From: Escherichia coli
Lineage (GTDB): Bacteria > Pseudomonadota > Gammaproteobacteria > Enterobacterales > Enterobacteriaceae
Length of the DNA: 64,000 nucleotides
Strand: one strand, 5' to 3'
Assembly: GCF_003334305.1 (NCBI RefSeq)
Contig: NZ_QOWS01000003.1
Positions 5,436 through 57,352 of this stretch are shown piece by piece. Both the position numbers and the translations under genes were made by a program. The notes under the pieces were generated by a model. The model made no database searches, was not told the origin of the DNA, and worked only from the letters and a program-made list of their open reading frames with translations. The first letter of the stretch is position 1. Every line of letters starts with the position of its first letter.

Positions 5436-5974
5436 ATCAACACCTCATAGTGAATTCTGTCCAAAACAATCATGTTCAGGTTTTTGATAAATAAAAAGCG
5501 ACTAAATACCACCTCAACATCAGGAGCGGCGATTACTTGGGTACCCGTGGACGAAGTAAAACCCATACGGCATATGTCTTTCAGTTTTTGAGTATCAGGT
5601 ACACCTACTAAGCCTTGGCTCCAGGCACTGAGGACCAGGGTTTTGGGGCAATGATTCCAGCGCTGTGCTGCTTCCAGTAAGTTTTTTAATTTTTCTTCCA
5701 GCTTTTGCTGCCCCTTCGCTGAACCATCAAAGCGTTCAAATTCGATTAAACACACAGGCGATGCAGAAGATTTATGAAACCAGCCCGAGTCAGAGCGAAT
5801 ATCAGCACCAAATGTCCCTGGAGCCGGGCATTCCACTACCGCCATAAATGACTGTTCATGCCCGAATGTATTCCAAACGCTACAGCCCAGGCTGTGGACC
5901 AATACATCCTGGTCCAATAGCTTACCGCTTGCTAAAAGTGGAAATGTCTCATTTACCCAGGCAACTTCAGGCAT
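5432..5974 (-). CDS. Hypothetical protein (about 180 aa), operon partner of the kinase
   Basis: ORF track 5432-6031; the first ATG is at 5974 (complement of 5972-5974), 7 nt after the HerA-like stop and preceded by AAGGTG. No recognisable motif. Confidence 0.7.
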   Translation of the reverse strand: MPEVAWVNETFPLLASGKLLDQDVLVHSLGCSVWNTFGHEQSFMAVVECPAPGTFGADIRSDSGWFHKSSASPVCLIEFERFDGSAKGQQKLEEKLKNLLEAAQRWNHCPKTLVLSAWSQGLVGVPDTQKLKDICRMGFTSSTGTQVIAAPDVEVVFSRFLFIKNLNMIVLDRIHYEVLM

Positions 5975-5981
5975 AGGCACC

Positions 5982-8814: not shown

Positions 8815-8816
8815 GC

Positions 8817-9665
8817 TTATAGCGTTCCTGTGTGTAGCTGCTCGCCAAGTAATGGGGCATAAGCCCAATATTGCGAGGCTTGTAGGCATGTTTTACCGGT
8901 AGCTGTTATGCCCGCGTCGTCGATAAAATCGTGCTGCCGCAACATCTCACCCCGCTTGACAATATCAAGGCTATTAACATCAAACATCAGCTTAACCGCA
9001 TTATGCTCAGACAACGCTTGTAAGTTCATGCCACCGCCAGCGTAGAGTAATAGCAATACAACTAGATCGTGCTTATCTGGCGTGTAGTCAGTTGATGGCG
9101 CTTTAGGTTCGATTATTCGTTCAGCAATGCCTGCATGGTCCACAAACCAATTCAACCAGCTCACCAGGAGCTCACTATGATCGAGTAAAGTCAGCGACCA
9201 CAAAGGTAACGTGGTAAAGGCTAATAGCCCACTGTTGCTGTGTTTTCGTATGTAGCGGGTATGCACTACATCACCGGCCTGGTGCTGGTAGCGATCTGCG
9301 CTGCCAGTAAAGCCAGCAATAGCCTGGTCTGTTTCACTGGCTAGCAAAGCGGTTAGCCCCGGTTCCTGCCCCCTCAAGCTCGCTGGTACTAACTGCCAAT
9401 CCAGTGGATAGGGCAATTGCGCTAATAAGGTAAATTGTTCTGCTTTCAGGTTTATTACCAAAGCGGCACAACCTGCCTGCATAGCCCAGTGATACAGGTG
9501 CTGCATAGTATTAGCGTCAGTCAACTCTTCTGCTTGCACTATTAACAAACCGCTGGCTGGCGGCGAGCTAATCCAATCCTTCATTAAGGGGGTAGCCCCC
9601 GCAACAGTTTGCAAAAAACGGCCTTTACGATTACTGGCCAGTGCCGCAGATAAATAACGACTCAT
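8817..9665 (-). CDS. Hypothetical protein (about 282 aa)
   Basis: ATG at 9665 (MSRYLSAAL...), 10 nt after the stop of the 1428-aa gene; the longer frame to 9692 needs a non-ATG start. No recognisable motif. Confidence 0.72.
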   Translation of the reverse strand: MSRYLSAALASNRKGRFLQTVAGATPLMKDWISSPPASGLLIVQAEELTDANTMQHLYHWAMQAGCAALVINLKAEQFTLLAQLPYPLDWQLVPASLRGQEPGLTALLASETDQAIAGFTGSADRYQHQAGDVVHTRYIRKHSNSGLLAFTTLPLWSLTLLDHSELLVSWLNWFVDHAGIAERIIEPKAPSTDYTPDKHDLVVLLLLYAGGGMNLQALSEHNAVKLMFDVNSLDIVKRGEMLRQHDFIDDAGITATGKTCLQASQYWAYAPLLGEQLHTGTL

Positions 9666-9675
9666 CGCGTCACCT

Positions 9676-12600
9676 CTACAAACCAGTGGCAAAGGTAAGG
9701 CGCATTTTTACAATGCCTTTGTCTACAAGTCCTTTCTGTTGCTCAGGTGTTAACACGGGTTCCTGATTTTGGCTCAAAGCCTTATAAATCGGTTGCCAAT
9801 CCGCCAGTGTTAAGCCTGTATCATTTAATATTTGCTCACCTTGACTCTGCCATTTGGCCTGGGTGCTTTCACACACCTGTTGAAGTTCTCTGACACCCAA
9901 ATTGCTCACATCCTCCAGAGTCAACGCTGCTGGTTCCGCTTGCTTTTGAGAAGCCAATAGCGGTTTTAATAACGGCAGCCAGCTGTTTACCTGTGCGATG
10001 GAGTTGCGTCTTACTTGGTTTAGACGCTCTTCAATTTTAAGTAGCTGGCCTTGAATCGGTGTAAGTTGACCGCGTGCCGGTTTTAAAAGCTCTTCTGGTA
10101 AATCCCGTAACGATGAAAACTGCCCATTGCGCAAACTGTTTTGCATACTTTGACGCTTGCTCTCTGCATCACTGGGGAGATCGGCAATAGCATCTTCAAT
10201 GAGCTGTAATTTCATTACCAGTTTTGGTAGCTCTGCAATGTCATCGGCGAACTGATACTCAGCCGTGGCGCTACTAAGCCATTCTTGCAGTTGTTGTGCA
10301 CGTAGTTTTTGCTCTGTGAGGTTATTAACCAGCTTACTAAATCGTTCTTTGCAGTTGCGGTAGCTGGACAAAATATGCCCCTGAATCTCCGCTATCGGCA
10401 ACTGTTGATCATTGTGCAGGTTTAAACCCACTTCTTGCGCTAAGGCTGAAAGCTTGTCATGCGCTCTACCTAAATCGAGTTTACGCAGGTAATGCAGTAA
10501 GGTATCGCTATCTGCTTGCTGCTCTTTTCGGCCAGTGGCACTGCTGGTATCGTCTTTTAACGCTCCATCTAAAATATGACCTATGGTGCGCAGCGTGTTG
10601 GTGTACAGACGTTTCGGAAAATTCGTCAGCGGGGCACACTCTGTTTCAACATCTATGATTAAATCAACGAGTCGGTTGTTGATACGCTCAGCGCTGCACT
10701 CAACAAACTCGGCAAATAAACAGGCCTGTTCAATCCGTTGATAAAGCGAGGTCGTTTTGTCTTCTAAGCTGAGAATATGGGCATCTTTTAGCATAGGCCT
10801 GGAACTATTAAGCGGTTTAACCTTTGCTACCAGCTCCAGCACTTCAGCGCGTTTGTGGATAAGCCCTGCCAATACTTTCGTGTCGTTGGCCTCGACCATA
10901 TCAGCCAATTGTTCTTCTTGCTGTTTGAGCACGTTAAATAGCGATTGTGCTTTTTCCAGCTGCTCTTTAGCTTCCACGGTGACGAAACCCAGCTTATTTT
11001 TACCCAGTGGCGCGAACATTTCATTAATGCGTGCATAACCATACACGCGGCTCATGACTTCCACATTGGCTGCATAGCTGCCCATATCGTTACCACGGAA
11101 CCAGTTTTGCGCTTCTCTAATGGCATTTTCTAAGCGGGAGCGCGGGTAGTGCTCCCAAATTGCCTGTTTTTCTGTTGGATTGGTTAAAGTGAGTAAGTTC
11201 AGCTCTCCACACCACCACATCCAGTCATTAAACACGCCTTTGGCGGTAACACTCGTTTCAGCCACATAGGCGAAATAAAACTGTTGCTTAAAGCCTTCGA
11301 ATTGCCACTTGTGCTTTTTATTAGGGTGAGCAATACGGGCTAAAAATAATGGGATCTGCGCCTGGCTTCGCTGCACATTATTAAGTTCAGTAAATAGCCC
11401 GGCATGTTCATCGGCAGTGTAACCTTTGGCAATATAGCTGCCCGGCACCTTAAGTTTATCCAACAAGCTGCTCAGCTCATTCACTGGCACGCCGTGTTGC
11501 TGCTGTAAATCGAGAATGCCATTTAACTCAGGGTGAGCAATGGCCAGCTGATACCAGCCTTTAAACAACAGGTCTCGGTCATTCGGTGATAATTTACCAT
11601 CTACCTTTAACGGCCAGGCAATTAAACCGCGCTGCTGCAAACGCTGGCGCCACTTGTGAATGGCATCCGTGGCAAAGGTTGTCAGGGCATGCAGCTTGTT
11701 TTTGAATTTCGCGGTAAAGCTGTCGGCAGTTAAATTCACGCCGTGCAACTGACATGCTGCCAAACTTAAGCCAATACGCTCTAACTGGTCTGCTTCGCTT
11801 GGGTTGACATAATGCAGCAGTATCGCATCACGCAACTCATTTCTTTCATCCAGTCGGCTGTATTGCTCCATGAGATGTGCAGAAGCAGTTAACGCTAATA
11901 CTGGCGTGCGACCATTTTGGTGGCTGTGGTTTGCCGCAAAGGTGTGAAGATTGTTCAGCTCAATTAGGTTGCTGACCCAGGCAAACAAGGCTTTACCTTC
12001 TGGGTGAAGCTTAAATCCATCCAGGGTAAGTAAACCACCCTGGCGGCCACGGGGCTCGGTTAAAATGGCCAAAGGTGCATCGTCGCTGCCCGCTTTATTA
12101 CTCAGCAAGTTTTCATCATAGGTCCAGTTGTTATCAAGTAATCTCACAAAGCCCGTTACACGGGCTAATGCCTTGATGAGCGGCTTCTGGCTACTTTGTT
12201 TGCTAAGTTCACTCATTGCCTGTTCATGAGCGTCGCCCATGGCGGGATCTTTAAAAATCAGTGAGTTTTGCTGGGCACTGCGATAGCGCAAATCCAGGCG
12301 CAGTAACATCGCCACACTGGGGCCAATATGCGTTGCTTCGCTGGCGTCCAGTTCGGTAGTTTCACCCACTAGCTTGTGCCATAAGGCATCGGCAGCGAAT
12401 TCAATCGCTGGGTGGTCATACAGCAAGCTGAGTAAGTATTTAAACTCACCTTTTGACAGAGGTAGTAATACCGCGCCTTTATCGCCGCTTGCGGCTTGTT
12501 CTTTAATTGAAAAAGTACGCAGGTTATCCAGCAAAGTATCTAAGTTCAGCGCTTGATCTACTGCAGGGTAGTACCATTCATCTTTATCGCGGCGGAATTT

Positions 12601-13962
12601 GGCTTGCTCCAGGGCTTGTCGGCACTGTAGGCGGTCAATGCTCAGTTTGCGGTAATGAGCGGCTATGGGTTCCAGATCTTCGTTTTTCAGCGCCAGCAAT
12701 TCTGTGGCATAGCCCATTTCAGCTAAGCGCACGGGTAATTGGCCGTAGAGCAAACTACGACATTCGGTCAATAGTGCCTGGTCGCGAGTTTGAATGCCTT
12801 CTATCGCGCCTTTATCCAGCACATGCCTGGCTACGCGGCCAGAGCCTGCCAGCACAGCTTCAAATAAATCGCCCACATCCTTGATACTGCGGCCTGCTTG
12901 TTGGTATTGGCTCAGCACTGCATCCACATTAGCCATGACCACGTTAAACCAACCGAAGTTGGCACCACTCATGGCGTATGCAGCTTCCACTAAACCAGCA
13001 GGGTAATTAAAACCCAGCTTGCCGTCTTTTAAGAGGCTTGCCACATAGTCTGATACATCGGCAAAGGCATTATGCTCAAGTTCCACTAACTCAAAGCGGC
13101 GTGCGACCGATTGAATTTCGCGCAATTGCTGGCCAAGCAGTGGTGAACACAGCGCTACATAGCGCAACCATGGAAGTTTACGGCGAGGGTCTTCCTCTTT
13201 AATTGCTTTACCAATCAGGCGAATGGCCTGGCCATCGAGGCGTTTATTTTGTTCATCTTCCAGGCCAAAGGTGGCGGCTTCTGCAACGGTTTCCAGCTCA
13301 TCCAGCACCACCAACATATACTGCACGCCAAAGCTCTTTAATACTTTATAGGCGGCTTGCACCAAACTGACTACCAGCGTTTGGTCAGTATAGAGGTCTT
13401 CTTCGCTGTGGTTGGCGTTCAGCTGTAAGGCATCTGCTAACAGTTCAGATTTAAAGCCAAATGGCATTAAGCGTTCATAGGCTTGTTTGGCAATTTCACT
13501 TTGAATCGATCCATCAAAGGTTTGGGTGGCCAGTGGTAATAGCGCCTGATATAAACCAAAAGCAAACCAGTTATCCGAGTTTTGATAATCTGATGCCACT
13601 TGCGAGTAGCGAATGTAGAGCGCCAGGTATTTGTCTTGCGTGTCGCGATTAAACAGCTGCTTATCGTGCAGTTGGCCTTGTTCGTCGCGGACAAACCAGC
13701 CCCTTGAACAGTCGTTAATTTGTGCAACCAATTCATGGCCTAAACGTGATTTACCCCGACCCCATTCGGCTTCGACGGCAAACACATGGGCAAAGCGATC
13801 ATCGTCGTGATCCACCGTATGCAAAAAGGTTTGAAAGCGTTTAAAAAAGCGGCTCTGGCCCACTAACGGGTCGCGAGGTGGATAATCTGATACGCCCGTC
13901 GCCGCCCAGCGATGTTGTTTTGCCAGGCTATCAACCATCTGTTCGTTTAATTCAAAACTCAT
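9676..13962 (-). CDS. Giant protein (1428 aa) with an N-terminal KAP-type P-loop NTPase domain and about 1200 aa of helical extension
   Basis: Walker A AEWGRGKSRL (the GxWGxGKS pattern of KAP NTPases) near residue 65 and Walker B MLVVLDELE about 150 residues later; the remainder is long and uninterrupted. ATGA overlap with the upstream gene. Confidence 0.85.
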   Translation of the reverse strand: MSFELNEQMVDSLAKQHRWAATGVSDYPPRDPLVGQSRFFKRFQTFLHTVDHDDDRFAHVFAVEAEWGRGKSRLGHELVAQINDCSRGWFVRDEQGQLHDKQLFNRDTQDKYLALYIRYSQVASDYQNSDNWFAFGLYQALLPLATQTFDGSIQSEIAKQAYERLMPFGFKSELLADALQLNANHSEEDLYTDQTLVVSLVQAAYKVLKSFGVQYMLVVLDELETVAEAATFGLEDEQNKRLDGQAIRLIGKAIKEEDPRRKLPWLRYVALCSPLLGQQLREIQSVARRFELVELEHNAFADVSDYVASLLKDGKLGFNYPAGLVEAAYAMSGANFGWFNVVMANVDAVLSQYQQAGRSIKDVGDLFEAVLAGSGRVARHVLDKGAIEGIQTRDQALLTECRSLLYGQLPVRLAEMGYATELLALKNEDLEPIAAHYRKLSIDRLQCRQALEQAKFRRDKDEWYYPAVDQALNLDTLLDNLRTFSIKEQAASGDKGAVLLPLSKGEFKYLLSLLYDHPAIEFAADALWHKLVGETTELDASEATHIGPSVAMLLRLDLRYRSAQQNSLIFKDPAMGDAHEQAMSELSKQSSQKPLIKALARVTGFVRLLDNNWTYDENLLSNKAGSDDAPLAILTEPRGRQGGLLTLDGFKLHPEGKALFAWVSNLIELNNLHTFAANHSHQNGRTPVLALTASAHLMEQYSRLDERNELRDAILLHYVNPSEADQLERIGLSLAACQLHGVNLTADSFTAKFKNKLHALTTFATDAIHKWRQRLQQRGLIAWPLKVDGKLSPNDRDLLFKGWYQLAIAHPELNGILDLQQQHGVPVNELSSLLDKLKVPGSYIAKGYTADEHAGLFTELNNVQRSQAQIPLFLARIAHPNKKHKWQFEGFKQQFYFAYVAETSVTAKGVFNDWMWWCGELNLLTLTNPTEKQAIWEHYPRSRLENAIREAQNWFRGNDMGSYAANVEVMSRVYGYARINEMFAPLGKNKLGFVTVEAKEQLEKAQSLFNVLKQQEEQLADMVEANDTKVLAGLIHKRAEVLELVAKVKPLNSSRPMLKDAHILSLEDKTTSLYQRIEQACLFAEFVECSAERINNRLVDLIIDVETECAPLTNFPKRLYTNTLRTIGHILDGALKDDTSSATGRKEQQADSDTLLHYLRKLDLGRAHDKLSALAQEVGLNLHNDQQLPIAEIQGHILSSYRNCKERFSKLVNNLTEQKLRAQQLQEWLSSATAEYQFADDIAELPKLVMKLQLIEDAIADLPSDAESKRQSMQNSLRNGQFSSLRDLPEELLKPARGQLTPIQGQLLKIEERLNQVRRNSIAQVNSWLPLLKPLLASQKQAEPAALTLEDVSNLGVRELQQVCESTQAKWQSQGEQILNDTGLTLADWQPIYKALSQNQEPVLTPEQQKGLVDKGIVKMRLTFATGL

Positions 13963-15260
13963 AACGACGATCCTTGAAGGTTTATTCTATTGGCGGCGCG
14001 TTTTTTATTGGCATAGCAGTTTTGCGCCAGTTGCTTAATGGTCCGTTGTAACGTTTGGCTTTTGTAGCCAAATAGTGGTGCTAACGGCAGGCTATAACAG
14101 GCATCGCTGAAGCTTGTATGAATTCGATATTGGCCGGCCTCTCCACGACCCGCCTCGGTAAATTGCCAGATTTTTTTTGCCAACAATTCGGCAATGAATG
14201 AGCTCAGGACGCGGTTTAGGCGGTTGATGCTTTCCGTGTTCGCATCGAGTGCCGGGTAGAGGGGTATATTGAGCTCACCGAGCAGAAGCACAAGAAACTC
14301 GGCCAAACTACCCAGACTCACCTCATCACCTTCAATGCCCTGTACCGCCACATTTATTTGACCGGGGGCAAAGGCATTTTGCCCGGCAGGTAAGGTGAGC
14401 AACAAACCGCCACGTTGCTCGGCAGCCCAGGCATCTTGCACAAAGATAATTAGACTGAGTAAAAATAACCAGGGCTGTTGGGCGAATAGCTCGGTAAGCG
14501 GCATGTTGTCATGACCCGAGCGGGACACCAATAACCAATCGGCATTGGGTTTAAGGTTATGTTCATCAAGCAAGGTATTAGGGAGTGCTAACAACCGCCC
14601 ACTACACCAGTTATTTGTCAGTTGTTTTGCGGTGACATCCACCGCTTGTATAGGTGCCGGTGGTTCATTTTGTTCGCTCACGGTAAACAAGGTATAGCTG
14701 GTGCGCAAAATACGACATAGCGCGGGAATGGCAGCATTGTCGTTTAGGCTATGACCGAGCAAATCGCGTTCGGTTTGTGCCAGAGGGCCGGCAATGATTT
14801 GCGGCGTGGTGGCAGTGCTTTCCAGCTGGGCTAAGACCCATTCACTGGCATTGCCCAGTTGCTGAATGAGTTTAACCAATACCATTGTGTCACTCATCGT
14901 GCCTGCTTCCTGGCAGCGAGCGGCGGCTAAATTGATCCAATGTTGGCGAACATCTGGGTTTAAGCCCAACAACGCTAATTGCCATTCACCTGACTGGCTT
15001 AAATCGTTAAAGGCATCAAGCAATGGTGCAGTGAGGCTAAAGGCGCTAACGATATCCGTTTCAGCGTCGTTCTTTTTCGGCTGTATTATTGGTTGTAGCA
15101 GTGACCTAAGGGCAGGCACAGCCGCCAATAACAATGCTGCTTTGTTGGCGTTCAAACCACCTTGTTGCCAAAGCTGCAGGCAGAGGTTAAGTGCCGCTTC
15201 GCTATTTACGGGGTCGTTATATTGCCTGGTTGTACTGCTGTCCGTGCCCCTTGTCTCCAT
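13959..15260 (-). CDS. Hypothetical protein (433 aa)
   Basis: Complete ORF starting METRGTDSS; 2-nt gap to the upstream HsdS-like gene and 4-nt overlap with the downstream gene. No recognisable motif. Confidence 0.78.
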   Translation of the reverse strand: METRGTDSSTTRQYNDPVNSEAALNLCLQLWQQGGLNANKAALLLAAVPALRSLLQPIIQPKKNDAETDIVSAFSLTAPLLDAFNDLSQSGEWQLALLGLNPDVRQHWINLAAARCQEAGTMSDTMVLVKLIQQLGNASEWVLAQLESTATTPQIIAGPLAQTERDLLGHSLNDNAAIPALCRILRTSYTLFTVSEQNEPPAPIQAVDVTAKQLTNNWCSGRLLALPNTLLDEHNLKPNADWLLVSRSGHDNMPLTELFAQQPWLFLLSLIIFVQDAWAAEQRGGLLLTLPAGQNAFAPGQINVAVQGIEGDEVSLGSLAEFLVLLLGELNIPLYPALDANTESINRLNRVLSSFIAELLAKKIWQFTEAGRGEAGQYRIHTSFSDACYSLPLAPLFGYKSQTLQRTIKQLAQNCYANKKRAANRINLQGSSL

Positions 15261-15262
15261 CT

Positions 15263-16741
15263 TTACTCTTCAGCCTCCGCTTGCGCCGCCTCTTCCAGCA
15301 AACTGTATAACTCATCCACATCGCTAAATAGCGGTGTGGCACCTTCAATGGCATAACCCTCAGCGCTCAGTTTGCTTAAAATCGCTTGATCAAAGCTGCT
15401 GTCGCCATCTTCCAGGGCTTGTTGGGCCTGGATTAGTTGTTGCTCAGTCAGTTGGCCTTCGATTAATGACTCAACTAGAGTTTTGGCAGATGCTGTTAAC
15501 TTTTTTGCATATGCTGCCGTAGTAACGGCTAGTCTCAGCTTACTTCCTATTTCTCTATTCTTCGCTATGTCAATCGGAATCAGAATATTTAACAGGTTTT
15601 CTGAAGTCACTTTTGGTACAACGCTGCCAGTAGTCACACCTTTCCAACACGGAAAGTGTTTATCCAGGAACCTACAAATAGACTCAATATCATATTCATC
15701 TTTTACCTTTAAAACCCAAACATGGTTGTTTGCCCAAAACTTTCCATCAGCTACATTTGCACAGCCAATAGAGCCATCTTGCGCAATAATCAGATATTTA
15801 CCGTTGAAATTGAATTCGGTATGAGTATCTATTGGACCTGATGCGCCATAGTAAAAATATGGTCCGGGTACTCTGTCTTCCGATTTAATAGGGTCGCCAC
15901 ATTTGCATTTACTAATGAAATTAGATAGTTTTGATGAATTCCTAAAGGTCATTTGACTATCGGCCGCACGTGCAAACTCAGGAGCTAAAGACACTGCTGA
16001 TAATACCTGTTGTTTCATTCTTCTAGGTTTCAATGTTAATGAATCAACAAGGTTGAAGTGAAATAAATCTTTAATTTTTCTATCAGCCATTCCTTCAAGT
16101 CGTTTCGCCCAAGCGCGTAACTGCTCGGCTTGGCGAACTTTATCCCCGATGTATTTTTGGGCTAGAGGTAAAACTTTAGGAACCGCTAGCGAGCGGACAC
16201 TTGGGAAGTCAATTGCAGGGCGAGTTGCGCCATATGCTTCCTTCCAGATCGCTACTTGTCCGGTTTTGCTATTCAAATATGCCACCAAGAAATAGGCGTC
16301 AACTTTTTTGGGATCGGGCTTGAATCTGACTGAGTGCTGACTAATGTTGGCCGGTAGATGTTTAGCTGACACAACAGCCGATTTACCAAATTTTGCACCA
16401 GTAATCGTAAGTAAAACGTCGCCATCCACTAATCGGCTGCGCTTTAATTTTTCATCATCTTCATCGTTAATAAAAACAGCTTCTTCAGCTTGCAAGAACA
16501 TTTCTTCAACTTCAGAAGTGCGATAAAACTTAACACGGCCTTTTTCTAAATAATTTGCTCCTAAAGGTGTTGCGCCACTAGCCACCCCGCGCTTTGAATC
16601 AATTACCGCTTCTAGGGGCAAAGCACCTAGGTTGTCTTTTATCTTATTAATTTGTCTTTCAAATCGCGGTTGATAGTGCCAAGGATCAATCCGCCTTTCA
16701 GACAATTGTTCGGGTGTTCTTTTAAAAATAGTTGCCATCAC
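15263..16741 (-). CDS. Type I restriction-modification specificity subunit-like protein (HsdS-like, two target-recognition domains)
   Basis: Two repeated TRD-end segments (GATRPAIDFPSVRSLAVPKVLPLAQ and GVTTGSVVPKVTSENLLNILIPIDIAKNREIG) plus a helical C-terminus, resembling HsdS. Start is GTG at 16741 or ATG at 16738, overlapping the methyltransferase stop. Confidence 0.75.
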   Translation of the reverse strand: MMATIFKRTPEQLSERRIDPWHYQPRFERQINKIKDNLGALPLEAVIDSKRGVASGATPLGANYLEKGRVKFYRTSEVEEMFLQAEEAVFINDEDDEKLKRSRLVDGDVLLTITGAKFGKSAVVSAKHLPANISQHSVRFKPDPKKVDAYFLVAYLNSKTGQVAIWKEAYGATRPAIDFPSVRSLAVPKVLPLAQKYIGDKVRQAEQLRAWAKRLEGMADRKIKDLFHFNLVDSLTLKPRRMKQQVLSAVSLAPEFARAADSQMTFRNSSKLSNFISKCKCGDPIKSEDRVPGPYFYYGASGPIDTHTEFNFNGKYLIIAQDGSIGCANVADGKFWANNHVWVLKVKDEYDIESICRFLDKHFPCWKGVTTGSVVPKVTSENLLNILIPIDIAKNREIGSKLRLAVTTAAYAKKLTASAKTLVESLIEGQLTEQQLIQAQQALEDGDSSFDQAILSKLSAEGYAIEGATPLFSDVDELYSLLEEAAQAEAEE

Positions 16742-18885
16742 TCACCCCGCTTATAAGCCGATACAATCTTATCCAGATCGTTTGCGACACCGGCGTTATA
16801 GTCTTCGATATTGTTTTTCACCACATAACCCAATGTTTCAGCCACTGCCATAAACACGTCGGTTTGTGGCTCGGGCAAAAATTGCTCTGGCTGGTTGGGG
16901 TTAGCATGGCGTTTTTGTAAATACAAAATCGAGGTTTTGGCCCCCGTACCGGAGAGTTTAAAGCAGTCGCTCGGCAATGAAATTACTGCTTTTACAATAG
17001 CTTTACCGCCAACAAACTCGCCGGTTTTTTCGTCTTTTTTCCCCATAATGTACTCACGGACATAACGGTCGCCGGAGTTACATAAAATACCATCAGGCAG
17101 CACTATTAACAGGCGGCCACCGGGTTTAAGCAGTTGCAGGCAGCGGTCGATAAAAAGTACTGCTGGGTCAATAGTGGCACCTACCGGTTGCCAGTTGCCC
17201 TTGCTATCGGGCTTGCTGCCCAGCGCGAGCCCTGCGGTTGTAGGCTGCAGGCTGTAAAACGGCTTTTTATCAGTCCCGCCCGTTCTGCGCAAATCGGTAC
17301 GGTAGCCCGCCCATTTAGGCTCGCCGTTTTCATCCAGCTCTAAATCACCGATATCCTGCCACTTCATTTTCACGTGGTCATACCAGGCGTTGTAGCTATC
17401 AACGACTTTTTTGGTCGGACGAAAACCACCGAGCACTTGCTCCATATTGGCTTCGTAATTGGCTTTTGAGTTTTGACCATTTTTGCCTTTATCAAATTTA
17501 GGCGTACCGAACGGCGGGTTGGTGCAAATCAGGTCAAAGCTATTCGGCTTCAGAGCGTTAGTAGTGAGTGAGTTGTCGGTATAAAAAATCTGCGCTTTGG
17601 GGGCACCTTGCAATGCCATATTCACGCGGGCCAGCATTACCATGCGTGGTGCAGCATCGGCACCGGTAAATGCACAGTCGCGTAATTTTTGTTTCAATGA
17701 TTCTTTTTTATCGTCGGCCAGCACCAGCTTAAAATCGATCCATTTATCAATCTGGCTTAACGCCACCGAGCCAAAACCAAAGGAGCCACAGGTGGGGTCG
17801 CAGAAACGAAAATCGCCATTGGCTAAGCGCGATCGCATTTCATCGTCATCGTCGATGTCGTGCATAGCAATTTCTAGCATGGCCTGTTTTACTGGGTTTG
17901 GTGTTAAATAAACGCCAAGGCCACCTTTGGATTCAAAGTTAGCGCGTAGGAATACATCAAACACTCTGCCTAGTAAATCTCCTGACACATCAGCCAACGT
18001 GCCGTGTTCTTTCGCGATTTTACCGTCGTTGGTTTTTACCGGACCCAGGTTTTGTATTGCTTCCAGCAAATCCTGATAGTTTTTCGCAACAGACAGTCGC
18101 AGGTGTGTTTCTTTACTAAAGATGGGGTTACGTGAGCCATCATCTGAGATCACAACGTAGTTTTCGTGGCTTTTAAATTCCTCAAAGGCGGCTTTGATTT
18201 GGGCAACGGCTTTATCGCCGTGGCTCTCCACATATTGCCAATCAAAGACATCACGAAAACGCAGGGTATTTCCCTCATCATCTTTAAAGGTAAGGTCTTC
18301 ATCGTGATGCAGGCGGAAAGTTTCTAAAAACAGAAGCTTAGCTACTTCTTCAATAATGTCGTTCTTGTCGTTTACCTTGTCTTTGGTAACGCGATAAACA
18401 TTTTCATGGAAGGCATCAAATCGCTGCATTAAGCGTGTATAAACACGCATCGACCAGCGAAAGGTTGGATCACGCTCCATGCGATCAAAGCTACGTAATT
18501 CTTCCAGACCAGGCAGGGTATCTGCACCGTGGGTACCGTCAGATCCATCGGCACCGAACAAGGCCAAAATACGTTGGTTCAAGCCATCGTCCACAACGGC
18601 ATATACTGGCCAGTCACCTTCGATATCACTTAACAGCTGATAGGCTAAATCATCAAACTTTGCAGTGTCAGCGGCGTATTCCCAATGGCCTTCTGTCAGC
18701 GCAATCAACATGACTGGTGGCGTTAAGTTGCCTTCAACCAGGCCTTGAATGAGACCAGCCTTGGCGAATTCATGCTCGGGTAATTCGACCAATGGCTGAG
18801 TAAACTCGGAGTGCTGTTTGACCAGTTTATTGAACAGTGCTTCTAGCTGCTGTTGCGGGTCTTGTTTTTTTGCTTCTTTTGCCAT
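16738..18885 (-). CDS. N6-adenine DNA methyltransferase (HsdM-like) with an extra N-terminal region of about 350 aa
   Basis: 715 aa; AdoMet motif I-like DPTCGSFGFG and catalytic motif IV NPPFG; the domain order resembles the type I M subunit. Confidence 0.85.
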   Translation of the reverse strand: MAKEAKKQDPQQQLEALFNKLVKQHSEFTQPLVELPEHEFAKAGLIQGLVEGNLTPPVMLIALTEGHWEYAADTAKFDDLAYQLLSDIEGDWPVYAVVDDGLNQRILALFGADGSDGTHGADTLPGLEELRSFDRMERDPTFRWSMRVYTRLMQRFDAFHENVYRVTKDKVNDKNDIIEEVAKLLFLETFRLHHDEDLTFKDDEGNTLRFRDVFDWQYVESHGDKAVAQIKAAFEEFKSHENYVVISDDGSRNPIFSKETHLRLSVAKNYQDLLEAIQNLGPVKTNDGKIAKEHGTLADVSGDLLGRVFDVFLRANFESKGGLGVYLTPNPVKQAMLEIAMHDIDDDDEMRSRLANGDFRFCDPTCGSFGFGSVALSQIDKWIDFKLVLADDKKESLKQKLRDCAFTGADAAPRMVMLARVNMALQGAPKAQIFYTDNSLTTNALKPNSFDLICTNPPFGTPKFDKGKNGQNSKANYEANMEQVLGGFRPTKKVVDSYNAWYDHVKMKWQDIGDLELDENGEPKWAGYRTDLRRTGGTDKKPFYSLQPTTAGLALGSKPDSKGNWQPVGATIDPAVLFIDRCLQLLKPGGRLLIVLPDGILCNSGDRYVREYIMGKKDEKTGEFVGGKAIVKAVISLPSDCFKLSGTGAKTSILYLQKRHANPNQPEQFLPEPQTDVFMAVAETLGYVVKNNIEDYNAGVANDLDKIVSAYKRGE

Positions 18886-18935
18886 GATGTTTTCTAAAAT
18901 CCTTTAATACAGCCAATGGTTACTACAAATGCCGG

Positions 18936-19322
18936 CTAATTTATCAGTACCAGCAAGGGGCCTTTAATCTCTATCTGCGCGTGCTTCTGTGCCAGTTTGC
19001 GTATCTGCTGTTCACTGGTCGTAATACCAGCAGGGAGCTTTTTCAGTACTTGTGCAAGGGGCATGCGCCCACCAGCTTGATGCAACAATGATACCAAATG
19101 TGCCGCGATATCAGGTATAACCTGGTACGTTGCCGTTGTGGGCCCTTTTAGATGATTACTTTGAGGCAATGAGGCAAGCCATAGCGAAACTTGAGACTGG
19201 CTAAAGCCAAGTGTTTGCCAGAGGGTTTGGTTCTCATTAAATACAACGGCGGCGCTTCTGGGAGTTGCTGTTTGCTGAGTTATTAGTTGTTCCAGGCTTT
19301 GTCGCTGGTATTCATGGGTCAT
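18936..19322 (-). CDS. Small hypothetical protein (128 aa), possibly helix-turn-helix
   Basis: ATGA overlap with the McrC-like gene stop; a 50-nt gap precedes the methyltransferase gene. The segment TLWQTLGFSQSQVSLWLAS loosely resembles an XRE-type HTH (weak). Confidence 0.65.
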   Translation of the reverse strand: MTHEYQRQSLEQLITQQTATPRSAAVVFNENQTLWQTLGFSQSQVSLWLASLPQSNHLKGPTTATYQVIPDIAAHLVSLLHQAGGRMPLAQVLKKLPAGITTSEQQIRKLAQKHAQIEIKGPLLVLIN

Positions 19323-20662
19323 CTCATGCCTCCACTATAGGATACTGAAGCAGCCATCCGATCCAGTTTGGGGCTCATTGTACAGGACACGTCATTCGGC
19401 CACATCATCCTCTCACCGCGTTTTGCCATTATCCGGTATGGCACAACCCATAATTTTAAAGTCTCCGAGAAAGCAAAATGCTGCGCTATAGGTTGGCTAA
19501 AGTCATCATGCGCAGGGTAAATCAGATACATTTCGCCATTCCCACCAAGATATTTTTGTCCGTAGGCAAACATTTGATAGAAGTCAGCTTGTGCCAGTCC
19601 ATAGAGTGATTTTGTCTGCTGGCTGCTATTCACCAGCTTCCATTTTGTATCCATCACCATTTCGGTTTGAACTGGTTTGTGTGATTGAATCAGCAAGTCG
19701 GGGCGAAGCTTAAAGCAATCTTTAAGTCCATGCTTTACCAAAGAATAAGTTGCTGCTTGAGGTAAAACTTTGAGGTGAGGTGGTAACTCGTCGGGTAGGG
19801 TCTGTGCCACAAAGGATTCAAATACCGCTTCCATAGGGAACAAAAGTGATATCGCTTTGGTGTTTCCCTGCAAAGCACTCGGGCTCATTCCCCTCAGGAT
19901 CAATTGCGCCCATGCCATTGGCTCGTTGTAATGAGCCATACCACGCTCGAGGCGTAAGTTGTTTATATCACGTTCAATATCCCGGCTAAGTGGAATACCG
20001 TCAAACGCAAAACGCAGTTCGTAAAGCCAGCGTTGATTATCTGATGACAGCTGCAGACTAAGAAGCTTATCTAGTGCGGAGTGTAAGAGCCGATTGGCTG
20101 CACAATCAGGCATGTAGTCATCATAATCGACACAAAACTTATGGCGATTCACCGCGTTATGTCGCAGCTGTGCAGAAAGCATCAGCTTGCCCTTCATAAA
20201 AGCCAGATTACCTTGCTTGCTCACATAGTCGGAGCGTAAACCCTGTTTAAGCAATTGGCTGACGCTATGCAAAAACTGGTTAATAAAAATCTCAAGCAAA
20301 GGCATACGCTGAGCCTGAAGAGTGGCTTGCTGGGTTTGAATATGTCGGAACCCAGGCAGATGGCTTAGCATCGTCAGCAATGTTTGACGTGCATTAGCCG
20401 CTGTGAGGTTTTTACCAACCTTGGGCAGTATCTCAAGCTGGAAACCGTGAGGTGTTGAAAGCATCCCTGCGTAGTTTTGAACCTGAAGCAATTTGAAGCC
20501 TGAGCGAGAGGTGAGTTTGAGGAACTGGCTCCCTTGATTACTTGCCAGGCTAAGCGCTTCTAAATAATTAAAGACCTGTGGAGGCACCGGTTTTGCGCCA
20601 ACTGAAGCCGCTTTTCCACTCCCCAAGAGGTCATATTCAAAAACGGAGATAACTTCACCCAT
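19319..20662 (-). CDS. McrC-like PD-(D/E)xK nuclease
   Basis: 447 aa; RPDLLI ... MDTKWK arrangement typical of the McrC catalytic core; overlaps the upstream McrB-like gene by 8 nt, as in mcrBC. Confidence 0.8.
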   Translation of the reverse strand: MGEVISVFEYDLLGSGKAASVGAKPVPPQVFNYLEALSLASNQGSQFLKLTSRSGFKLLQVQNYAGMLSTPHGFQLEILPKVGKNLTAANARQTLLTMLSHLPGFRHIQTQQATLQAQRMPLLEIFINQFLHSVSQLLKQGLRSDYVSKQGNLAFMKGKLMLSAQLRHNAVNRHKFCVDYDDYMPDCAANRLLHSALDKLLSLQLSSDNQRWLYELRFAFDGIPLSRDIERDINNLRLERGMAHYNEPMAWAQLILRGMSPSALQGNTKAISLLFPMEAVFESFVAQTLPDELPPHLKVLPQAATYSLVKHGLKDCFKLRPDLLIQSHKPVQTEMVMDTKWKLVNSSQQTKSLYGLAQADFYQMFAYGQKYLGGNGEMYLIYPAHDDFSQPIAQHFAFSETLKLWVVPYRIMAKRGERMMWPNDVSCTMSPKLDRMAASVSYSGGMR

Positions 20663-22730
20663 GATTTACTGCCTGCTCATCAAGGGGAGTCTGTTGGGGC
20701 TGATAAATTGAACGATAAGCCTGTGGAATATTCCAGATCTCTTGATCGAAATCTTTGAGCTCATAAGCTGTTGATTGCTGATCATGGCGTCGTAAACCAT
20801 GGTTGTTACCAAAAAGCGTATCGAGATCGTCGGTTTTCTCAATCACGAATTGCAGGTTGTCGTCTTGCTTTTGATTGTCTGCCAGCACCAACCGGATCTT
20901 GTTCCAGTCATCGAAAAAGTATTCCTGTAAAAGCGGAATGATCTTTTTCTGGAATGCGATCTTCAATTGTTTAAACGCAGCTTCTTCATCACCGGCATCG
21001 AGTGCATTTTTTACCGGCATAAAGAACGCATGCCCCAGCGTATGTTCACGATCGTAAAGAGCCTCGATGCGGCTATTGAGTTTCTCTAACAACGACTCGA
21101 GCTCTATGCCTTTCACCTTAGCTTCACTCAGTAAAGAGAGATCAGGCATCATTTCGACAAAGTCAAAGCGACGGCGCAAAGCCGTGTCCATCAGAGCTAA
21201 AGAACGGTCCGCTGTATTCATGGCTCCGATGATATCGACATTGCCGGGTACGCTGAAGTGATCACCGCTATAAGCCAGTTGCAGGCTCATCGCATTGGGC
21301 ATGCCTGCACGCTTGTCTACTTCAATGAGTGAGATTAGTTCACCAAAGATCTTGGATATGTTACCGCGATTGATCTCATCAATGAAAATGGCGTAGCGAT
21401 GTCCTGGATCGGCATTCGCACGTTGGCAAAGGCGCATAAAGATACCCGGCTCAATGGGATAAGAGATATTGCCACTCTCGTCAGAGCGAGCGCGTATACC
21501 TTCAATAAATTCTTCATAGCCGTAAGATTGGTGGAACGTAACCACCGCAAAACGCTGGATGGCTTCGGCAGATTTAGGGCCACGTTTAAGTTCGGCGTAG
21601 AGCTCTACCAAATCCTCCACTTGCTCGAGCTGTGAATCAACTAGAAACCATTCGCTGTTATCTGTTTTGTTAAATACGGCAGGCTCACGCCGATTCTTAT
21701 AATCAACGGTTAACGACTCGGGAACTGTATAGGATTGCAAAGCTGCCCAGGCAGTATTCGATAGATTGCCATTACGACCGTTTAATAATGCCTTACGTTG
21801 AAACCACATATGTTCAATAATTTGGCGAACTTTCGCTCGTTTCCCAAGATCGAGCAGCACCAGCGTTATAACCTGCATCCAGTTCAACGATTCAAGGCGA
21901 GAATCCAGCCAGGCATCACGATCAGCGGGAACAGCATGAGAAGTGTACTCTTTCATTTTTTGCTGCAACCTGAAGGTCTTGCCAGTGCCAGGGGGGCCAA
22001 AGAAGATCACGTTAGTTGGTGAATGTAGGATGATCTTGTTCTCGATGGGCTCACTGCGGGTTATGGATGTAGTGCTAGCTACTTTCTCCTGCTTTTGTTC
22101 ATTATCGCGTTCACGGAGCAATTCATAGAGATGCCAGATGGCCATATTCACATAATAAGGATCTGTATCAGGAGATTGGGCGTGTATGGCTTGTTTCAAT
22201 TCATAGTTTTTCTGTAACCAATTTCCGGTCAGTACCAAACCGAGATGGAAGTGCTGATTTAAGAATTCTGCTGCTTTATTAAAAGCATTCTCATCCACAG
22301 TACTGGTGTAGTTTTCTGGCGAGAACGCGGCAAAGACGCGATTTCTCAAACTCCAATACATACGCTTGAGAAGTCCGTTTTCTTTAGCTTGTTGAAGTGC
22401 ATTGCCAACATATTGGTAAGTTTCTTCATCCGGCTGTTGCCGAATTCGTTCAGTTAGTTCTCTAAGCAGTGGCAGGCTTTGCTGATATTCTGCTAAGGAT
22501 GGAACGCCCTGGCGAATACTTGCAATGCCGTTGTCACGCTCATACCAAAGCTGTTTGACCAGACCATCTGTTGCAGGCTCAGCAAAAGTTGAGGTTTGCT
22601 GTAGCAAAGTCGTAAATGCACGGTATCGCTGATACCATCTGGAAGCTGTGTAATTTTTATCTTTCGCCAGGGCATCAATCAATTCACTAATCGTTAGCCT
22701 ACCTGCTTCGACACTATCTACAAGAGTCAT
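20655..22730 (-). CDS. McrB-like AAA+ NTPase with a distinct N-terminal domain of about 230 aa
   Basis: 691 aa; Walker A GPPGTGKTF, Walker B FIDEINRGN and the McrB-type ALRRRFDF motif. First gene of the operon; GAGGAA ribosome-binding site 8 nt upstream of the ATG. Confidence 0.85.
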   Translation of the reverse strand: MTLVDSVEAGRLTISELIDALAKDKNYTASRWYQRYRAFTTLLQQTSTFAEPATDGLVKQLWYERDNGIASIRQGVPSLAEYQQSLPLLRELTERIRQQPDEETYQYVGNALQQAKENGLLKRMYWSLRNRVFAAFSPENYTSTVDENAFNKAAEFLNQHFHLGLVLTGNWLQKNYELKQAIHAQSPDTDPYYVNMAIWHLYELLRERDNEQKQEKVASTTSITRSEPIENKIILHSPTNVIFFGPPGTGKTFRLQQKMKEYTSHAVPADRDAWLDSRLESLNWMQVITLVLLDLGKRAKVRQIIEHMWFQRKALLNGRNGNLSNTAWAALQSYTVPESLTVDYKNRREPAVFNKTDNSEWFLVDSQLEQVEDLVELYAELKRGPKSAEAIQRFAVVTFHQSYGYEEFIEGIRARSDESGNISYPIEPGIFMRLCQRANADPGHRYAIFIDEINRGNISKIFGELISLIEVDKRAGMPNAMSLQLAYSGDHFSVPGNVDIIGAMNTADRSLALMDTALRRRFDFVEMMPDLSLLSEAKVKGIELESLLEKLNSRIEALYDREHTLGHAFFMPVKNALDAGDEEAAFKQLKIAFQKKIIPLLQEYFFDDWNKIRLVLADNQKQDDNLQFVIEKTDDLDTLFGNNHGLRRHDQQSTAYELKDFDQEIWNIPQAYRSIYQPQQTPLDEQAVNHG

Positions 22731-22899
22731 CGTGACTTTTCCTCTGTTGTGACATTACTTATTTTTTAATTAATATGAGGTATTCTAACTATATTGAGTT
22801 AATCGTTGTGACAAGTGCCTGTTATATATACAACTATCTGTTAACTCAGCTCTAATTTAAATACAATGTAAGGTTGTAGGGTGAATGCTGTTATCAACC
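22731..22899 (-). promoter_or_regulatory. AT-rich intergenic region, probable promoter of the 12-gene operon
   Basis: 169 bp between the HNH gene stop and the McrB-like start; candidate -35 TTGTCA (complement of 22809-22814) and -10 TATAGT (complement of 22788-22793) with a short 15-bp spacer, so the hexamer call is weak. Confidence 0.35.
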
Positions 22900-23772
22900 T
22901 CACCCCCTAAAAACCTCTTTCCGATGCCACTCTACAAACACCTCATAAGGGTAATTTTTACGCACCTGCGGCAACGCAATAGTTTTCCCGTCAAAATCCC
23001 AGAATAATCTCTCAACGATCCCTCCGCCGTTTACCGCATCTGATACCAGTACCCGCATATTTTCATCCAGGCCAATCGATCCTTTATCAAAGGCTTTATG
23101 GTGAATTGCGCAAAGCGCCAGGCCATTAGGAATTTCACAAGGACCTCCTTGCTGTTTCCATTTTATATGCGCCGCTTCCAACGCTACGGTGGTGTCGTCG
23201 TGGCGCATATTAAAGCCACATATCGCGCACTGGTAGTTATAAGCGCGTAATACATTTTTGCGAAATAAAGGGTCGCGCTGTTTACGGATTTGCTGGAGAT
23301 CAAAACCCAGCTCGTCAGCAATTTCTTCCTGAATACTCTCGGTGAAGTGCGCTTCGAGTATCTGTTGCGCCAGAGTATTGATGAGTTTTTTATTGCCGGT
23401 TACCAGGGCGTAGTGCTGTTCATCGAAACCGCCTGCAACGTGGTATTCGTTCAGTTCCTTCACTGGCGGTTGTCGGCTGCTCCCTGCTGTTGAGCAAAGC
23501 TCGGCATTGTGTAATTGCCAGAATCCGTCGCCTTGTAATCGCCAGAACGGCATATCAGGTCGGTAATGTGAACGCTGTGGCCCAAAACGTTCCAGTAAAC
23601 TGTGCAGAGGTTCGTAGATTTCCGATCCATAATCGAAAAGGCGTGGATGTCCATTCAGGTATCCCGCTAATACGTATAGCAATAACAATGGCTTATGCGG
23701 CGCGCGCTGTTCACCTTTGTGCCAGATTTTTATGTTGGCAATTGCCTGCTGTAGCGATTTACTGGAAGCCAT
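22900..23772 (-). CDS. HNH endonuclease with an uncharacterised N-terminal domain (candidate modification-dependent restriction enzyme)
   Basis: C-terminal HNH motif CAICGF ... AAHIKWKQQGGPCEIPNGLALCAIHHKAFDKG. Preferred start is the ATG at 23772 (MASSKSL), preceded by AGGGA; the ORF track extends to 23829 with a TTG start. Confidence 0.78.
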   Translation of the reverse strand: MASSKSLQQAIANIKIWHKGEQRAPHKPLLLLYVLAGYLNGHPRLFDYGSEIYEPLHSLLERFGPQRSHYRPDMPFWRLQGDGFWQLHNAELCSTAGSSRQPPVKELNEYHVAGGFDEQHYALVTGNKKLINTLAQQILEAHFTESIQEEIADELGFDLQQIRKQRDPLFRKNVLRAYNYQCAICGFNMRHDDTTVALEAAHIKWKQQGGPCEIPNGLALCAIHHKAFDKGSIGLDENMRVLVSDAVNGGGIVERLFWDFDGKTIALPQVRKNYPYEVFVEWHRKEVFRG

Positions 23773-23983
23773 TGATATCCCTGGCAGTGAAATAATTGCG
23801 ATCATGCTCGCAAATTTTCGGCTGTTCAAGCCTGCAAGTGAAGATATATTACTTTGATCTCATTTGTTTTTTTGCTGCCTGTGTACCCTAATTGCCATGC
23901 GATGTTGCACCGACGCAAACCACCTTTTACGCCGGAGGAGTTAAAAGCGTTGATGGATGCGAATAAATCAAATTAATGAACGC

Positions 23984-24964
23984 TCACTTTTCGCGCCAAA
24001 ACTGCAAAATTGCTTCTACAAACCTGTCAGAAATAACCCCCCGACGGGCTGCCGTGCTGAAATGACTGCTTCGCAGTGCCGTCGTCCAGTTCTCCGGTGA
24101 CCGGTACGCTGAACCGTAATATCCCGTGCTTAAATCGTCCGGGTCTTCATCAGGCGCGTTCGTCAGTCCTCTTTCACCTTGTTGCTGGAAGTCGACGAAA
24201 ATAATATTGGCTAAAACATTATTTTGATAATTGCCATAAATAGCTTCATACGAATGCGGGAAATTTTCTTTCCAGTACCAGGTGGTATCGCCGCAAAACC
24301 ACGGCGCGTCAGTAATATTATTAAGCTGAGAATGGTATTGTTTTAGATCCCTACGAAAGGCTTCAACCATATGATTAAAGTGTTGAGGGTGTGACGCGTA
24401 GTCACTGGTCATTAAGTCAAATTCGCCTTGCATCCAGCATACGCCGAGGAATTTGTTCTGCGGATTTTTTGCCAGTGCGGCTCGCGTTCTGCTGACTAAA
24501 TCCTGGTATAGCGGAGTATCCGATCCCCAACGACAAGCATCATGGCTGGCTCCGTGCCGTTCTGAATATGTCCCTTCGCTGCCCGCGATAAAAGCCGAGC
24601 CGCCACGACAACATGGAACGATGAGAACCCCTGCATTATCAGGAATAGAGGGCAGTAATTTCCGTGCAATATGCAGTGCCTGGCCAACGGTGCCGTACTG
24701 TGTTTGATGATTCGTTGCCAGAGGATGGTGATAACCCTGCATATCCTGAACATCGTGTGGGCAGTGAGTCAGTGGAATAATGTCGTTAAAGTGACATGAC
24801 GGGCCTCCGGGATGCGTATGCGCAAATCTCGCTAATTGTTTAATTCTGGGATGAGGCGCATCTTCCCTGTCCGGTAATGGCAGTCCTTCGCCATACGCCA
24901 TGGCATTAGACTGACCAGCAACGGTAAGAACATAGTAATAATCGGGCGATATTATTGCGTTCAT
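23984..24964 (-). CDS. nanS: 9-O-acetyl-N-acetylneuraminate esterase
   Basis: Product from MNAIISPDYYYVLTVAGQSNAMAYGEG... (about 326 aa) matches remembered NanS/YjhS. Confidence 0.9.
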   Translation of the reverse strand: MNAIISPDYYYVLTVAGQSNAMAYGEGLPLPDREDAPHPRIKQLARFAHTHPGGPSCHFNDIIPLTHCPHDVQDMQGYHHPLATNHQTQYGTVGQALHIARKLLPSIPDNAGVLIVPCCRGGSAFIAGSEGTYSERHGASHDACRWGSDTPLYQDLVSRTRAALAKNPQNKFLGVCWMQGEFDLMTSDYASHPQHFNHMVEAFRRDLKQYHSQLNNITDAPWFCGDTTWYWKENFPHSYEAIYGNYQNNVLANIIFVDFQQQGERGLTNAPDEDPDDLSTGYYGSAYRSPENWTTALRSSHFSTAARRGVISDRFVEAILQFWREK

Positions 24965-25028
24965 ATAAATTTCGCGTAATTGAAATGACAAATTGATAGC
25001 AGGGCCCCTTTACCGGGGCCCTGAAGCG

Positions 25029-57228: not shown

Positions 57229-57318
57229 TCAGAGACGGATGACAAACGCAAAGCTGCCTGATGCGCTACGCTTATCAGACCTACATTTCCTCTGCAATCT
57301 ATTGAATTTGCGCGGTTT

Positions 57319-57352
57319 GTAGGCCGGATAAGGCGTTCACGCCGCATCCGGT
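57319..57352. repeat. REP element
   Basis: gtaggccggataaggcgttcacgccgcatccgg. Confidence 0.7.

Follow-up and report, generated by a model that had tools for sequence, protein, structure and literature searches.

The minus-strand gene at positions 22900-23772 of a 64,000-nucleotide stretch of Escherichia coli DNA (assembly GCF_003334305.1, contig NZ_QOWS01000003.1; this whole stretch is referred to as the window) very probably encodes a stand-alone modification-dependent restriction endonuclease, in which an N-terminal DNA sulfur-binding domain (SBD) is combined with a C-terminal HNH nuclease domain, and which represents an allele of the characterised enzyme EcoWI. A previous sequence-only reading had described a stand-alone HNH nuclease with a modified-DNA reader at this position, and the present analysis bears out both halves of that description, with an N-terminus that corresponds to a ScoMcrA-type SBD by sequence, fold and Pfam records and a C-terminus that corresponds to HNH_2. 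Among the reader parallels that had been offered, the ScoMcrA type held, whereas those with McrA or with SRA, PUA and YTH domains did not, the predicted target being a backbone phosphorothioate (PT) and not a base modification. Phosphorothioated DNA, one of the substrates then suggested, fits the family and SBD assignments.

22900..23772, minus strand: coding sequence of the SBD-HNH phosphorothioate-dependent restriction endonuclease (290 residues plus stop; identical to WP_000168559.1)

Assignment to the SBD-HNH family

The predicted protein matched the NCBIfam model NF045808, "phosphorothioated DNA-binding restriction endonuclease", with 436.8 bits (E = 2.9e-131) against a curated cutoff of 180 bits. 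As the match extended over profile positions 2-284 of 284, it constitutes a full-length assignment, well above what chance would give, to the SBD-HNH family of EcoWI/SprMcrA type. A database search returned 4430 homologues of the protein. RefSeq gives an identical locus the same name. A Pfam-A scan of the window protein returned only HNH_2 (PF13391, E = 5.5e-10); Pfam records both PF26340 (DNA-SBD_ScoMcrA) and PF13391 on a 98%-identical homologue (P0002) and on more distant homologues. Judged from its sequence, the gene has all those features defining the SBD-HNH phosphorothioate-dependent restriction endonucleases that can be tested at sequence level.

An HNH motif by itself is common to several nuclease classes, and the gene could in principle encode a homing endonuclease, a colicin/pyocin-type toxin, a phage packaging HNH protein or a 5-methylcytosine-directed McrA-type enzyme; in NCBIfam, the HNH region also gave a weak, sub-threshold match to IscB (24.5 bits vs a cutoff of 175). 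Nevertheless, no homing, colicin, terminase-associated or McrA model was matched in NCBIfam, Pfam or PADLOC, the N-terminal domain matched only sulfur-binding domains, and the gene lies at a chromosomal site beside nanS, where neither an intron or intein nor an immunity gene or phage surroundings were seen. None of the searches assigned the protein to a homing-endonuclease or colicin-like family, the outcome that had been named beforehand as counting against a restriction enzyme. The profile and fold searches thus effectively refute a homing, colicin-like, packaging or McrA-like nuclease, and we regard the chance of any such class as negligible.

The N-terminal domain as a sulfur-binding domain

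The domain that the sequence-only reading could not name, and for which it had recommended a profile search, was named as an SBD both by a sequence search of the PDB and by Foldseek. In the phmmer search against the PDB, residues 23-161 of the 309-residue form of the protein matched the SBD of ScoMcrA (5zmo, E = 5.6e-8; also 5zmm and 5zmn), and weaker matches were obtained to the SBD of SprMcrA (7cc9, 7ccd and 7ccj). In an AlphaFold2 (AF2) model built on a shallow alignment of 21 orthologue sequences, residues 1-160 reached predicted local distance difference test (pLDDT) values mostly of 70-94 (61-94 by 10-residue block). When this model was compared to the PDB by Foldseek, the top 15 matches, down to E ~2e-3, were all SBDs (ScoMcrA, SprMcrA, Hga), with template modeling (TM) scores normalised to the target of 0.70-0.77; the best was 5zmo, at 0.77 and a root-mean-square deviation of 2.1 Å over 136 columns. 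Together, the PDB sequence matches and the confident N-terminal model agree with the PF26340 fold and identify the predicted domain as a ScoMcrA-type SBD. The recognition region had been put at about 200 residues; it is better described as a domain of ~140-160 residues followed by a linker.

23293..23772, minus strand: SBD, about residues 1-160 (approximate boundaries; the C-terminal part is a helical linker)
23689..23697, minus strand: H26-K27-P28, with H26/K27 as the H116/R117 equivalents (sulfur-cavity wall and cationic phosphorothioate contact)
23539..23553, minus strand: M74-P75-F76-W77-R78, with M74 as Y164 (cavity lid), P75 as P165 (floor, essential) and R78 as A168
23467..23484, minus strand: G97-S-S-R-Q-P102 loop, aligned with the ScoMcrA S187-RGRR-191 base-reading loop

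In ScoMcrA, the cavity that receives the Rp sulfur has walls formed by H116, R117, Y164 and A168 and a floor formed by P165; R117 is Lys in most homologues, and binding is lost in the exchanges P165N and R117A but becomes stronger with Y164M (PMC6224610). HMMER alignment to 5zmo/5zmm mapped H116, R117, Y164, P165 and A168 to H26, K27, M74, P75 and R78, respectively (290-residue numbering). The equivalents of H116, R117 and P165 are therefore all present, as H26, K27 and P75. H26, K27, P28, P75, F76, W77 and R78 were invariant in the 21 orthologues and M74 was conserved in at least 90%; these residues match the KPzzLL...PF..L..W signature that has been reported for active EcoWI homologues (PMC7461809). 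The S187-RGRR-191 loop of ScoMcrA reads the bases of GpsGCC (PMC6224610), and by analogy the G97-P102 loop would set a sequence context different from GpsGCC.

The C-terminal HNH nuclease domain

The HNH motif was found intact, as had been claimed, with CAIC...H...N...CAIHH all present in the open reading frame (ORF).

23065..23229, minus strand: HNH_2 nuclease domain, residues 182-236 (PF13391, E = 5.5e-10)
23218-23229, minus strand: C182-x-x-C185, within the HNH_2 domain
23167-23169, minus strand: H202, within the HNH_2 domain
23125-23127, minus strand: N216, within the HNH_2 domain
23098-23112, minus strand: C221-A-I-H224-H225, within the HNH_2 domain

Besides the Pfam match, the HNH region (residues 188-268 of the 309-residue form) matched TagI (6ghs, E = 1.2e-4) in the PDB sequence search, and the PADLOC HNH model PDLC04132 was matched with E = 3.3e-25. 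C182, C185, H202, N216, C221, H224 and H225 were invariant in the 21 orthologues. By sequence, the protein has both the H-N-H residues and the CxxC...CxxH zinc ribbon, in agreement with the zinc ribbon CxxC/CxxH and H-N-H triad described for the family (PMC7461809).

Extent of the gene and assignment of the start codon

The longest minus-strand ORF was recovered at 22900..23829, the coordinates already proposed; it is uninterrupted, has its stop codon at 22900-22902 and comprises 309 residues when read from a TTG, and its translation contains both peptides that had been quoted from it, HKPLLLLYVLAGY and FWRLQGDGFWQL. The start codon had been left ambiguous among 23772, 23805 and 23829. We assign the true start to the ATG at 23772 and discard the other two candidates, which gives a predicted gene at 22900-23772 (minus strand) of 290 residues and 33.2 kDa. 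RefSeq, through the Prokaryotic Genome Annotation Pipeline (PGAP), starts a 100% identical locus at this ATG (WP_000168559.1), and the NCBIfam NF045808 profile opens 4-5 residues past its Met. In an alignment of 20 orthologues, i.e. that of E. coli W and 19 others, among them sequences from Shigella, Citrobacter, Pseudocitrobacter, Lelliottia, Enterobacter, Klebsiella, Salmonella, Kluyvera and Buttiauxella (21 sequences with the window protein), a Met was found at the aligned position in 20/20 (M-A/T/P-S...), and it was the first residue in all except P0098, which has a 6-residue extension. A Shine-Dalgarno-like GGGA is located 5 nt upstream of the ATG at 23772, and nothing in the family corresponds to the 19 residues that the longest ORF would add. 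Alignments within E. coli upstream of 23772 gave no discrimination among the three candidate starts (~70 nt are conserved even in O157), so that the choice was based on the inter-genus orthologues and on the NCBIfam profile.

Relationship to EcoWI

EcoWI is an E. coli SBD-HNH enzyme with a predicted mass of 33.4 kDa that forms dimers in solution and works with Mg2+, becoming promiscuous with Mn2+; it recognises GpsAAC/GpsTTC and cuts at N7/N6 to leave a 1-nt 3' overhang, acting on fully and hemi-modified sites with stimulation by a second site (PMC7461809). In vivo, it strongly restricts dnd+ plasmids with GpsAAC/GpsTTC modification and weakly those with GpsGCC, and EcoWI expressed alone from a plasmid is sufficient for restriction of dnd+ plasmids (PMC7461809).

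In the E. coli W chromosome (NC_017635.1) we found the island and the gene order exactly as in the window. The orthologue of strain W, WP_000168572.1, has 290 residues and a computed mass of 33.31 kDa, and the window protein is identical to it at 288/290 positions (99.3%), with H69 for Q and G156 for R. Under REBASE naming, "EcoWI" presumably points to E. coli strain W. From this naming and the predicted mass, the strain W orthologue is almost certainly EcoWI and, given the 288/290 identity, the window gene is treated as an EcoWI allele. The two substitutions would presumably leave the properties of the enzyme unchanged. Dimerisation, Mg2+ requirement, GpsAAC/GpsTTC specificity, N7/N6 cleavage and restriction of dnd+ plasmids are accordingly properties that the window allele is expected to share with EcoWI, from whose literature they are taken.

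Functional state and selection

Ratios of nonsynonymous to synonymous substitutions (dN/dS), calculated by the Nei-Gojobori method against the alleles of W, 536 and O157, were 0.28, 0.25 and 0.16, respectively, which indicates purifying selection within E. coli. These values bear on whether the gene has become inactive or is drifting as a relic, or else encodes an SBD-HNH protein of a specificity or role other than those of EcoWI, such as one that binds PT without useful nuclease activity. Several facts would suit such a state: the site has only decayed fragments of the gene in K-12 and many other strains, the remains of a further HNH gene are found just upstream, the window allele differs from that of E. 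coli W at two residues, and some family members, such as Bsp48385I or Hba180I, are weakly active (PMC7461809). On the other hand, the ORF is full-length, all residues of the pocket, the zinc ribbon and the catalytic site are retained without variation, the dN/dS range is 0.16-0.28 with 99.3% identity to the E. coli W orthologue, and substitutions 69 and 156 fall outside the conserved pocket and HNH motifs. We therefore judge a relic or another role highly unlikely. That the gene has often decayed in other lineages is usual for restriction genes and says nothing on this copy.

In E. coli K-12 C3026, a frameshifted SBD-HNH fragment of ~200 bp adjoins nanS (6032-6237 of that locus) and shares 88.7% identity with the coding sequence of the N-terminal SBD portion, ~residues 7-89. 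As K-12 keeps only this frameshifted fragment, laboratory K-12 strains would be without this restriction activity.

Independence from the McrBC-like operon

The next gene downstream, an McrB-like ORF on the same strand, begins at 22730 and leaves the gap of 169 bp that had been reported. The possible independence of the nuclease gene from that operon, raised at the same time, is supported by its distribution: the gene has no McrBC-like neighbours in most carrier genomes, and its neighbours differ among strains. The 873-bp gene was present at ≥80% coverage in 1707/5426 complete E. coli genomes, and a 5.1-kb segment comprising it together with the McrB-like, McrC-like and 128-residue genes in only 289/5426. 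Obligate co-occurrence with McrB/McrC, as expected from an McrBC accessory subunit, was thus not observed (1707 vs 289 genomes). Downstream of the gene, strain 536 carries a peptidase remnant and a hypothetical gene from the end of a different leuX island, and O157:H7 carries recombinase and transposase remnants. Homology with strain 536 ends after TGAGGTTGATAAC, ~10 nt past the stop codon, and homology with O157 ends inside the last 11 codons, resulting in a 283-residue variant with altered C-terminus. On its other flank, the gene stays linked to nanS-nanM-nanC-fimB. In Salmonella, too, the orthologue stands singly, and the genes around it are unrelated ones that include YjiT/YjiV-like genes and a YjhX toxin. 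Collectively, these observations point to genetic independence of the gene from the neighbouring McrBC-like operon.

That the gene instead forms a functional part of the adjacent McrBC-like/methylation-associated operon, for example as a co-transcribed nuclease or sensor subunit, might be proposed because it precedes the McrB-like gene by only 169 bp on the same strand and the interval shows no convincing intrinsic terminator, an arrangement repeated in E. coli W and in the 289 complete genomes. We consider it most improbable: carriers of the gene number 1707 against 289 with the McrBC-like neighbours, downstream neighbours are unrelated in 536 and O157:H7 and different again in Salmonella, homology breaks ~10 nt after the 3' end of the gene or just inside it, and EcoWI expressed alone restricts dnd+ plasmids (PMC7461809). 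There is also a slim chance that, in W-type strains, the SBD-HNH gene is coupled to the large leuX island, either by read-through over the 169-bp spacer or because islands are repeatedly exchanged by recombination at the 3' end of the gene. Nothing requires read-through into the McrB-like gene.

Proposed mode of action and significance

If the gene product acts as EcoWI does, the SBD would dock on double-stranded DNA and the Rp sulfur of the PT linkage would enter a small hydrophobic cavity made up of H26, M74, P75 and R78, with K27 as cationic contact, while the neighbouring loop at ~G97-P102 would read the flanking bases. The helical linker would then place the C-terminal zinc-ribbon HNH (beta-beta-alpha-metal) nuclease, with zinc bound by C182/C185/C221/H224 and catalysis carried out by H202, N216 and H225, so that both strands would be cut at a short, constant distance from the PT linkage. 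Its role would be to destroy DNA, such as that of plasmids and phages, which enters the cell with PT modifications from the dnd system of a previous host. Such a role demands that the present host be without a dnd system of matching specificity. No dnd genes were found among the annotated neighbours of identical or near-identical loci, and fewer than 3.6% of such SBD-HNH genes are near dnd clusters (Lutz et al., 2020, PMC7461809).

Some points weigh against the assignment of the gene as an active, independently expressed EcoWI allele. A promoter and terminator scan of 22500-24200 gave nothing above the shuffle expectation, and no minus-strand promoter site. AF2 pLDDT was <50 over the HNH domain, the fold of which is backed by sequence alone. 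No sequence or accession for EcoWI is given in PMC7461809 (text and supplement), PMC9521924 or PMC10602919, for which reason its equation with the E. coli W orthologue relies on REBASE naming and mass. The activity of the window allele itself is a prediction, as is the absence of a dnd cluster from the source genome beyond the 64-kb window.

With regard to discovery the gene carries little weight: nothing is new here, as the family is already named by an NCBIfam model and a Pfam domain, SBD crystal structures have been solved for three proteins, and the E. coli member has been biochemically characterised and is in use as a sequencing reagent, namely in EcoWI-seq (PMC9521924). Its value is for annotation, where 22900-23772 should be entered as the gene of a phosphorothioate-dependent restriction endonuclease. 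The presence of the gene further predicts that the strain resists uptake of DNA from dnd+ (GpsAAC/GpsTTC-modifying) donors and that the strain itself is without a GpsAAC/GpsTTC modification system. Finally, the gene marks the distal boundary of the leuX island and helps to delimit the neighbouring defence operon.

Flanking regions and the leuX defence island

The non-coding sequences on both sides of the gene were inspected for promoters, terminators, RNA families and recombination junctions.

23773..23983, minus strand: upstream non-coding region from the nanS stop to the gene start (211 bp), expected to hold the gene's own promoter
23796-23813: hairpin over the discarded ATG at 23805, of a kind found at chance rate
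22731..22899, minus strand: AT-rich spacer to the McrB-like gene (169 bp), with the junction to variable leuX-island cargo at ~22889, ~10 nt past the stop

In the upstream region, ~70 nt preceding the ATG at 23772 are kept even in O157, and the rest of the O157 spacer is different. A C-terminal remnant of a different HNH nuclease (YPNCHAMLHRRKPPFTPEELKALMDANKSN, LLPVYPNCHAMLHRRKPPFTPEELKALMDANKSN), annotated as a pseudogene by PGAP, lies at 23872-23976 on the plus strand, in the interval that separates the nanS stop from the SBD-HNH start; W and 536 have kept it and O157 lacks it, and in K-12 the small protein YthB is annotated in the corresponding spacer. The nanS gene itself (sialate O-acetylesterase, 23984-24991, minus strand) is apparently full length, with 335 residues from a TTG, and PGAP calls it a truncated pseudogene in the STEC711, W and K-12 C3026 records. 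The discrepancy could lie in the annotation or the choice of start codon, or the genes could truly differ outside the part that is 100% identical.

At the 3' end of the SBD-HNH gene, a hairpin (GGGGGUGAGGUUG...CAGCAUUCACCC, -15.6 kcal/mol) overlaps the stop codon. It was rejected as a terminator, as it is not significant (z = -1.4) and has no U-tract. The junctions between island and flank of W-type strains, 536 and O157 fall within ~45 nt at this end (window ~22855-22940), which may thus be a recurrent recombination junction. A search near the gene for a direct repeat of the leuX 3' end (attR) returned only the tRNA itself, and an Rfam scan of the window revealed no RNA family in or near the gene. 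The same scan reported the ES036 (CssrF) small RNA at 57277-57319 on the minus strand (39.9 bits vs a gathering cutoff of 37.6), which is unrelated to the gene.

The leuX defence island extends over ~2214-22889, from the tRNA-Leu gene leuX (2214-2298) and an integrase (2646-3764) up to the SBD-HNH stop, and the same island is present in E. coli W. It contains ten co-oriented minus-strand genes at 3966-22730. The order of products begins with a Ser/Thr kinase, a 199-residue protein, a HerA-like ATPase and proteins of 410, 291, 1428 and 433 residues, the last four without family matches, and continues with HsdS-like, HsdM-like, 128-residue, McrC-like and McrB-like proteins. The McrB-like protein has 691 residues, its N-terminal ~230 residues being without assignment. 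PADLOC named the kinase mad6 (1.2e-45) and the HerA-like ATPase HerA/mad8, and gave weak mad5/mad2 matches for the HsdS/HsdM-like proteins; the mad-model matches are sub-threshold in NCBIfam, where the MAD6 cutoff was not reached. From these sequence matches, the island looks like a MADS-like methylation-associated system joined to an McrBC-like pair, and it is a more interesting object than the SBD-HNH gene in this part of the window.

Comparison with known systems

The predicted enzyme was compared with characterised nucleases that share one or both of its domains. TagI (6GHS) and other PF13391 modification-dependent nucleases have a related HNH_2 domain, but their N-terminal reader is unrelated, and the window protein gave no match outside the HNH region. 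ScoMcrA of Streptomyces coelicolor (5ZMM, 5ZMN, 5ZMO) has a homologous SBD with the equivalents of H116, R117 and P165, and likewise a C-terminal HNH domain. It differs, however, in its size of 561 residues compared to 290, in an extra N-terminal head domain and an SRA domain, and in cutting also DNA with 5-methylcytosine or 5-hydroxymethylcytosine; in addition, its base-reading loop is SRGRR (GpsGCC) where the window protein has GSSRQ, and the window protein has Met at the position of its Y164. No SRA domain was detected in the 290-residue protein, in which only the SBD, a short linker and HNH_2 were found and the match to 5zmn was confined to the SBD. The lack of SRA assigns it to the SprMcrA/EcoWI architecture and not to that of ScoMcrA.

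SprMcrA of Streptomyces pristinaespiralis (7CC9, 7CCD, 7CCJ) is, like the window protein, an SBD-HNH protein without SRA, and its SBD gave target-normalised TM scores of 0.70-0.75, despite an identity of only ~17-19% in the structural alignment. SprMcrA depends on Mn2+, cleaves at variable distance and has H-N-R as its catalytic triad (PMC7461809), whereas the triad of the window protein is H-N-H. EcoWI, in turn, resembles the window protein in species, in its SBD-linker-HNH architecture and in its size of ~33 kDa, and both have the KPzzLL...PF..L..W motif and the CxxC/CxxH zinc ribbon; from the presumed counterpart of EcoWI in E. coli W, the window protein differs at two residues, H69 and G156.

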